Shown here: positions 42,337-42,666 of the stretch, in pieces
How the letters are laid out: each line of letters starts with the position of its first letter
Position numbering within the stretch: position 1 is the stretch's first letter
Assembly (NCBI RefSeq): GCF_056712565.1
Contig: NZ_CM160072.1
DNA length: 64,000 nt
Strand: one strand, 5' to 3'
Position numbers and translations under genes: made by a program
The notes under the pieces: model-generated
What the model was told of the DNA's origin: nothing
Seen by the model: only the letters and a program-made list of their open reading frames with translations
The model's database searches: none

Positions 42337-42666
42337 ATGAAACGCTTTCCGCTATTTCTTTTATTCACCCTGCTCACGCTGTCCACCGTTCCGGCCCAGG
42401 CCGATATTATCGACGACACCATTGGCAATATTCAGCAGGCGATTAACGACGCTTATAACCCTGACCGTGGGCGAGACTATGAAGATTCGCGCGACGACGG
42501 TTGGCAACGCCAGGTGAGCGACGATCGTCGCAAGCAATATAACGATCGCCGCCGCCAGTTTGAAGATCGCCGCAGGCAGCTGGACGATCGCCAGCGCCAG
42601 CTTGATCAGGAGCGTCGGCAACTGGAAGATGAAGAGCGGAGAATGGAAGATGAGTATGGGCGTTGA
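42337..42666 (+). CDS. yjdP: Small secreted protein with a highly charged Arg/Asp/Gln/Glu-rich repetitive C-terminal half
   Basis: 109-aa ORF with signal peptide and reiterated DRRRQ-like units. Confidence 0.7.
   Translation: MKRFPLFLLFTLLTLSTVPAQADIIDDTIGNIQQAINDAYNPDRGRDYEDSRDDGWQRQVSDDRRKQYNDRRRQFEDRRRQLDDRQRQLDQERRQLEDEERRMEDEYGR

Follow-up and report, generated by a model that had tools for sequence, protein, structure and literature searches.

The closest described relatives of the small protein YjdP are the other members of the family defined by NCBIfam model NF041443 and Pfam entry PF28054, in which one architecture recurs at one position, the end of the phn locus. Here we analysed yjdP as it occurs at 42337..42666 (plus strand) in a stretch of 64,000 nucleotides from contig NZ_CM160072.1 (RefSeq assembly GCF_056712565.1; hereafter the window), where nothing essential in YjdP differs from that family. 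Outside the family, several described systems invite comparison. Charged single alpha-helices (CSAH, or ER-K helices, as in myosin VI/X and caldesmon) resemble YjdP in forming a long helix with more than 50% charged residues and with opposite charges spaced i/i+3 and i/i+4, and the isolated helix that AlphaFold2 predicts for YjdP would be CSAH-like. However, YjdP relies on Asp, Arg and Gln rather than Glu and Lys, keeps a strict seven-residue period and has a conserved hydrophobic residue in each unit; it is also bacterial, predicted to be periplasmic, positionally conserved and without sequence relationship to these helices. Leucine zippers and Braun lipoprotein Lpp share with YjdP a Leu-type residue at every seventh position over ~6 heptads and the form predicted for it, a small periplasmic helical rod of ~8 nm, but YjdP has a polar or charged residue at heptad position 'a', no lipobox, no C-terminal Lys for attachment to peptidoglycan and no sequence similarity to Lpp. 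The LTXXQ proteins Spy, CpxP and ZraP are likewise small, alpha-helical, rich in Gln, Arg and Glu, equipped with a signal peptide and induced by an inhibitor of LolCDE. YjdP differs from them in lacking the LTXXQ motif, with no LTXXQ/CpxP-like Pfam match even at E<=10, and its predicted regulator is an RcsB-type box whereas theirs is CpxR or BaeR. Lastly, RcsB promoters of the rprA type, like that predicted for yjdP, carry an ATTGAGA-N-TC box abutting a weak -35 element (-53 to -33 in rprA against a predicted -49 to -36 in yjdP), although the last base of the yjdP box is C or G and not the A of the RcsB consensus. Overall we lean, with the odds only slightly in its favour, towards YjdP being an Rcs-induced, Sec-exported periplasmic helical rod.

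The 601 bases around yjdP are 100% identical to the locus of the E. coli type strain ATCC 11775, and the window is E. coli. There the same open reading frame (ORF), flanked by rpiB and by the convergent phnP, carries the annotation "yjdP: DDRRRQL repeat protein YjdP". The protein belongs to the family of the equivalog model NF041443, which it matches at E 2.3e-43 and 146.6 bits (cut-off 90) over residues 1-103 (profile positions 1-101), and its homologues carry the newer Pfam family PF28054. The gene is present in 5404/5426 complete E. coli genomes. An initial annotation of the window, made from the DNA letters without database searches, had already named the gene yjdP, in agreement with RefSeq and with the NF041443 match. 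Gene and repeat are thus both catalogued, under RefSeq, NCBIfam and Pfam names, and YjdP, as one of the E. coli y-genes, is without an assigned molecular role in the catalogue. In a full-text literature search, no E. coli paper mentioning yjdP studied the gene itself.

What is described here is an annotated E. coli core gene, and the catalogue gains nothing new by it. The modest value of the analysis lies in a concrete and cheap hypothesis, which joins a cross-genus RcsB-type, rprA-like promoter to a positionally constrained periplasmic heptad helix. This hypothesis would make YjdP one of the envelope-stress effectors; its confirmation would bring yjdP into the Rcs regulon and turn its product into a workable model for Asp/Arg-based single helices or zippers in the bacterial periplasm. 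Two small points are added here, the RcsB-type footprint and a structural reading backed by numbers, and we found neither reported in the searchable literature.

The coding sequence, supported by the NF041443 match and by its substitution pattern, starts with ATG and comprises 109 codons plus a stop. A Shine-Dalgarno sequence, GAGG (42326..42329, plus strand), precedes the ATG by 7 nt; at this position the orthologues, too, have a purine-rich block. Residues 1-22 (MKRFPLFLLFTLLTLSTVPAQA; 42337..42402, plus strand) make up a predicted Sec signal peptide, with a basic MKR start, the hydrophobic core FPLFLLFTLLTLSTVP (mean Kyte-Doolittle hydropathy of 1.9 over residues 4-17) and AQA, followed by D23. 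The sequence of this peptide drifts among orthologues, but A/T/V/L-x-A is kept directly before the conserved mature start in every one of them. From this pattern we infer Sec export and cleavage by signal peptidase I after AQA. Since YjdP has no Cys, it lacks a lipobox and is not a lipoprotein. The initial annotation had proposed a signal peptide and a periplasmic protein of unknown function; the first proposal is upheld by the MKR, FPLFLLFTLLTLSTVP and AQA pattern, and the second is consistent with this pattern and with public annotation. The translation quoted there is that of the ORF, letter for letter.

Comparison of the E. coli and Citrobacter genes gave a ratio of non-synonymous to synonymous substitution rates (dN/dS) of 0.07 overall and 0.03 in the repeats, with synonymous sites changed at 65-72% (proportion of synonymous differences, pS, 0.65-0.72). 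Such a low ratio in the repeats, together with near-saturated synonymous change, indicates that the repeats are kept by protein-level selection and not by DNA homogenisation. No frame other than that of yjdP is open in every one of the 11 orthologues examined. Alleles that encode 97, 102, 109 or 123 amino acids (P0018, P0032, P0053 and P0114) differ by whole heptads and are always in frame. The number of heptads ranges from 4 to 8 among the seven E. coli/E. albertii variants and the orthologues from other genera that were counted, with six in the window, 4-6 in other E. coli strains and up to 8 in E. albertii. That the ORF might not be translated, the outcome by which the initial annotation had proposed to refute itself, is contradicted by the dN/dS of 0.07, the in-frame heptad indels and the single shared open frame. 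On this substitution and indel pattern, we regard yjdP as a genuine, selected protein gene. Some YjdP database entries are extended at the C terminus, apparently through frameshifts or read-through in the gene calls.

The mature protein has 87 amino acids, of which 53% are Asp, Glu, Lys or Arg, with a grand average of hydropathy (GRAVY) of -2.28 and an isoelectric point of ~4.5. AlphaFold2 was run with and without an alignment on full-length and mature YjdP, and both runs gave a short N-terminal helix of low confidence, a disordered linker and one long helix with a predicted local distance difference test (pLDDT) score of 85-97 over the repeats. The N-terminal amphipathic helix of the mature protein (residues 24-40, IIDDTIGNIQQAINDAY; 42406..42456, plus strand) is predicted at a pLDDT of ~55. 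Its hydrophobic residues I25, I29, I32, I36 and A39/Y40 follow 4-3-4-3 spacing (hydrophobic moment, muH, 0.49), and conservation of the segment among genera is high, suggestive of a specific contact. It is followed by an acidic low-complexity linker (residues 41-52; 42457..42492, plus strand), where pLDDT falls below 50 (mature residues 21-30) and where amino-acid divergence and indels among orthologues are highest. The long alpha-helix is predicted over residues 53-108 in the model of the mature protein (42493..42660, plus strand; ~56 residues, ~8 nm) and over residues 49-107 in that of the full-length protein. The initial annotation had expected a coiled or disordered protein; the predicted disorder is limited to the linker at about residues 41-52, and the repeats are confidently predicted as alpha-helix.

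Within this helix lie six DDRRRQL-type heptads (residues 62-103; 42520..42645, plus strand), with a period of 21 nt in the DNA. In order they read DDRRKQY, NDRRRQF, EDRRRQL, DDRQRQL, DQERRQL and EDEERRM. At lag 7, 23/39 positions in the repeats are identical, a value reached at any lag from 2 to 21 by 0/20,000 composition-preserving shuffles, and charge is autocorrelated at lags 7 (0.58) and 14 (0.45). Tandem Repeats Finder reported the 21-nt period at 42544-42605. The charge periodicity remarked on in the initial annotation is thus real, but the unit given there, DRR(R/K)Q, is too short; the real unit is the heptad (D/E)(D/E)R(R/Q)RQ(L/F/Y/M).

The arrangement of charges and hydrophobic residues along the helix resembles two known designs and fits neither. 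Pairs at i+3 and i+4 comprise 33 of opposite and 5 of like charge, against 22.1 and 21.1 in shuffled sequences, and 0/5000 shuffles reached the observed difference; by its sequence, this is the charge signature of a charged single alpha-helix. The residues in register d (Y, F, L, L, L and M) form a stripe that is kept in the orthologues and is bordered on the helix surface by Arg at g and a. A hydrophobic seam at every seventh residue departs from the definition of a pure single alpha-helix. Position 'a', in turn, reads RRRQRE here and is confined to R, Q, H and E across the orthologues, which departs from the definition of a canonical coiled coil or leucine zipper. The coiled coil entertained in the initial annotation does not hold for the repeats in its canonical form, since 'a' is always polar and each heptad has a single hydrophobic residue. 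The most conserved repeat residues are the R-Q-L triad at b-c-d, and their conservation points to a specific periodic contact surface rather than a merely compositional role.

It is possible, though we think it doubtful, that the heptads nevertheless form a coiled coil of the leucine-zipper type, a parallel dimeric or trimeric rod as in Lpp. The hydrophobic residue at every seventh position (register d) occurs in every orthologue, over a range of 4 to 8 units. In the first four heptads g is basic and e acidic, so that g-e' pairs would be favourable, and the N-terminal helix has its own 4-3-4-3 hydrophobic seam. However, the residues at 'a' would leave the core only half hydrophobic in every orthologue, the last two heptads would bring repulsive E-E g-e' pairs together, and the density of intrahelical salt bridges is at the level of a single alpha-helix.

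The second part of our proposal, control by RcsB, comes from the DNA upstream of yjdP. An alignment of 11 upstream regions showed almost no conservation except for a 16-nt block, a TAnnnT motif and the Shine-Dalgarno region. The block, ATTGAGAaTyCTCCgCT, lies 71-73 nt before the ATG in the loci first inspected (9/9); its core columns are invariant in 11/11 aligned regions and its spacing to TAnnnT is fixed. In the window it occupies 42264-42280, and its TGA is the rpiB stop codon (42266-42268); the block is nonetheless retained in O157, where a histidine kinase gene replaces rpiB. At its core is a 14-mer resembling an RcsB box, TGAGATTCATCCAC (42266..42279, plus strand). The structurally defined RcsB box is TN(G/A)GAN4TC(T/C)NA (PMC7913699), with which the 14-mer agrees at 13/14 positions, the final A being C here; no match to the strict consensus occurs anywhere in the 64-kb window. 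The left half of the box, ATTGAGA, is identical to that of the crystallised rprA RcsB site ATTGAGACGAATCTGA, which lies at -53 to -33.

A predicted -10 hexamer, TAATGT (42303..42308, plus strand), follows 23 nt after the 14-mer, and its T, A and final T are invariant in 11/11 regions. The -35 that it implies, TACTTG (42280..42285, plus strand), is a poor match. With TAATGT as the -10, the box would occupy -49 to -36, abutting this degenerate -35 in an activator-dependent arrangement like that of rprA, and transcription would start near 42315. A promoter scan returned no consensus sigma-70 promoter upstream of yjdP, and the promoter was found by phylogenetic footprinting only. The gene upstream varies and yet the block and the -10 are invariant, which suggests that yjdP has its own promoter.

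Published transcriptomes bear on this reading. In an RNA-seq study of a LolCDE inhibitor, yjdP was up 9.5-fold and 10.6-fold (PMC5105897). Induced with it were osmB, bdm, wca genes, rcsA, ivy, mliC and yjbEFGH (PMC5105897). Under the same stress spy rose 31-fold and cpxP 12.6-fold, against 9.5-fold for yjdP (PMC5105897). The supplement of a colicin M transcriptome has no yjdP entry. In sum, we judge that dependence of yjdP on RcsB is somewhat more probable than its absence, given the footprint and these co-induced genes.

Several observations weigh against the proposal. The terminal A of the consensus is absent from the box in every orthologue, being C or G, and the right half of the box, TCCRC, is weaker than the left. 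The start position is deduced from the -10. The searchable literature holds no experiment linking RcsB to yjdP. Cpx and RpoS targets were also co-induced by the LolCDE inhibitor, hence the response is not specific to Rcs (PMC5105897), and among the PRECISE iModulons yjdP falls in Crp-2, together with rpiB, and outside the RcsAB module. At the protein level, YjdP was not found in two searchable proteome supplements (thermal proteome profiling and a study of membrane-protein localisation); its Arg-rich half would be cut into very small pieces by trypsin, and it may be little expressed under basal conditions. The AlphaFold2 models have predicted template modelling (pTM) scores of 0.41-0.42 and are silent on oligomeric state. 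Nor did the Pfam, PDB and Foldseek searches return, by structure or by sequence, a relative of known function. A PDB sequence search gave nothing below E 0.65, Foldseek found no match in the PDB for the AlphaFold2 model, Pfam-A gave only sub-threshold, composition-driven matches (DUF7900, TolA, FlbB, RNase Y), and PADLOC and PHROGs gave nothing meaningful.

Some of these points could instead mean that the upstream block is no RcsB site, an alternative to which we give roughly one chance in three at best. Expression would then come from rpiB read-through or CRP, or depend on CsiR, on another factor of the NarL/FixJ type or on an RcsB heteromer (with RcsA, BglJ, GadE or MatA). The Crp-2 membership speaks for the first of these; we read it as rpiB read-through, because there is no terminator between rpiB and yjdP. 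The block, however, is conserved in genera and strains without rpiB upstream, which read-through from rpiB does not explain. For CsiR there is a ChIP-seq peak in yjdP, and induction of CsiR represses yjdP 3.5-fold, data to which we attach little weight. The right half of the box departs from the homodimer consensus, which could mean a heteromeric partner or a different regulator, and sites of RcsB heteromers have only one half-site in common with the homodimer site. On the other side, inspection of the 11-region alignment revealed no conserved CRP, CpxR or PhoB-like motif, and yjdP is induced together with classical Rcs targets.

If YjdP is an Rcs-induced periplasmic rod as we propose, the following sequence of events can be envisaged. 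The promoter would be an activator-dependent sigma-70 promoter in which the RcsB-type box replaces the -35, centred ~42.5 bp upstream of the start, and YjdP would be made mainly while the Rcs envelope-stress phosphorelay is active. Where rpiB lies upstream, read-through from it would add some CRP- or allose-linked expression. Sec export and cleavage after AQA would release an 87-residue acidic periplasmic protein, consisting of the amphipathic N-terminal helix, the flexible acidic linker as a tether and the ~56-residue helix (~8 nm). Dense intrahelical salt bridges between Asp or Glu and Arg would stiffen the heptad helix, whose single, Arg-flanked stripe of Leu, Phe, Tyr or Met could serve for self-association or for docking on a periodic partner in the envelope. 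The helical rod is a prediction of the AlphaFold2 models, and our working guess is that cells under stress make YjdP as a periplasmic rod with a structural or binding role.

A less specific role, in which YjdP is a hydrophilic protectant or 'shield' of the hydrophilin or late embryogenesis abundant (LEA) type and composition alone matters, seems to us improbable. The GRAVY of -2.28 and the 53% of charged residues would suit such a role, as would co-induction with the osmotic and desiccation-related osmB, osmY, otsAB and wca. But a compositional role has no need of the strong positional conservation found here (dN/dS 0.03 in the repeats, R-Q-L nearly invariant), and the conserved N-terminal amphipathic helix suggests a specific contact. 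Hydrophilins are reportedly defined by more than 6% Gly together with high hydrophilicity; YjdP is hydrophilic enough, but its 4.6% Gly is below that value.

As pure speculation, and with very little expectation that it is right, YjdP can be imagined as an RcsB-controlled periplasmic 'ruler' helix, whose Arg-Gln-Leu triads, one every 10.5 A (7 x 1.5 A), would read a periodic envelope polymer. The ligand could be the peptidoglycan glycan strand with its disaccharide repeat of ~10.3 A, which such a helix could shield when the envelope is damaged, together with Ivy and MliC, the lysozyme inhibitors induced along with it, or else the surface that the heptads of the Lpp coiled coil present. The idea is based solely on positional conservation, on an 'a' position that is never hydrophobic and on co-expression; if true, it would mean that a single repeat helix can recognise a polymer in a new way.

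That the ORF is no functional protein gene is the only rival we regard as effectively excluded: the missing protein detection in the supplements searched, two antisense ORFs of 84-86 codons overlapping the repeats and five GATC sites at 21-bp spacing could be cited for it, but against it stand the dN/dS of 0.03-0.07 with near-saturated synonymous change, length variants that are all in frame, stops in the antisense frames of orthologues, GATC sites that are not conserved, the conserved signal-peptide logic and Shine-Dalgarno sequence, and an empty Rfam result. The antisense ORFs (42361-42621, minus strand, 86 codons; 42443-42697, minus strand, 84 codons) were rejected as genes on account of those stops, and are by-products of GC-rich Arg codons. 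The GATC (Dam) sites, at 42523-42607, arise four times from GAT-CGN (Asp-Arg) and once from GAT-CAG (Asp-Gln). We rejected them as a SeqA/Dam feature, as the window has clusters just as dense in other places (e.g. 43212 and 52244-52302) and orthologues have 0-5 sites without conservation; they are probably incidental to the codons used. The Rfam scan, covering 41500-43500, returned no match.

Turning to the genomic neighbourhood, every genome examined has yjdP facing the 3' end of the phn locus (phnP or a remnant of the locus) in convergent orientation. The upstream neighbour is rpiB in most E. coli and in a Klebsiella sp. metagenome-assembled genome (MAG), a hybrid histidine kinase in O157, Citrobacter and Entomohabitans, and an SSF transporter in Buttiauxella. 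In Cronobacter it is an uncharacterised 771-residue protein without a Pfam match, itself downstream of an HSP90-like ATPase, and in three metagenomic enterobacterial contigs it is a nitroreductase, phosphatase or lactamase-fold gene. As the upstream neighbour varies among genera, yjdP has no conserved partner gene. A breakpoint in gene content falls directly upstream of the promoter block, at ~42269: where the strain of the window has als-rpiB, O157 and Citrobacter have a hybrid sensor kinase island (OI167 / lmvK-like; L013 646-2916; L007 2667-4931) and other genera have unrelated genes.

Functional links suggested by these neighbours were considered and set aside. yjdP is convergent with the phn operon and not co-transcribed with it, and it is kept in Cronobacter and Entomohabitans, where phn is reduced or absent; because yjdP persists where the phn operon has decayed, we rejected a link to phosphonate use. 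A link to the upstream hybrid kinase was also rejected, the kinase being a neighbour in some lineages only.

The family is small and appears to be confined to the Enterobacteriaceae. An exhaustive HMMER scan of 1.8 billion cluster representatives, with the range of the family read from protein-database names, returned only 58 hits at E<=1e-3, and every named member belongs to the Enterobacteriaceae. One architecture is shared by Escherichia, Shigella, Citrobacter, the Klebsiella sp. MAG, Buttiauxella, Cronobacter and Entomohabitans: a drifting signal peptide ending in A-x-A, the conserved segment DIIDDTIGNIQQAINDAY, a variable acidic linker, the heptads and a short acidic tail. The weakest hits are mostly long, unrelated proteins drawn in by composition, with a few small metagenomic proteins of similar architecture. 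Among the metagenomic proteins with a signal peptide, P0166, P0173 and P0174 have a similar C-terminal tail, ...LDAQQRQIDQERRQIEAERRRL, at borderline E values of 1e-4 to 7e-4, and could be remote relatives from beyond the Enterobacteriaceae or low-complexity sequences that arose by convergence. The names 'RNase H-like nuclease', 'Skp chaperone' and 'colicin uptake protein', given by JGI to cluster members, were rejected as low-complexity artefacts.

Downstream, a terminator scan detected no canonical terminator on either side of yjdP, neither between rpiB and yjdP nor between yjdP and phnP. An imperfect hairpin spans the yjdP-phnP gap (42656..42719, both strands), with a fold energy of -27.2 kcal/mol (z -2.5) on the plus strand and -29.4 kcal/mol (z -3.0) on the minus strand, and has no T-tract. 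The allele in the window, with its six heptads, has a gap of 27 nt between the convergent stop codons of yjdP and phnP (42667-42693), compared with 76 nt in O157 (L013 3315-3390) and 146 nt in BL21 (L014 1531-1676). These longer gaps in the other strains hold G-rich palindromic inserts downstream of yjdP (BoxC/REP-like, 'HPGQ').

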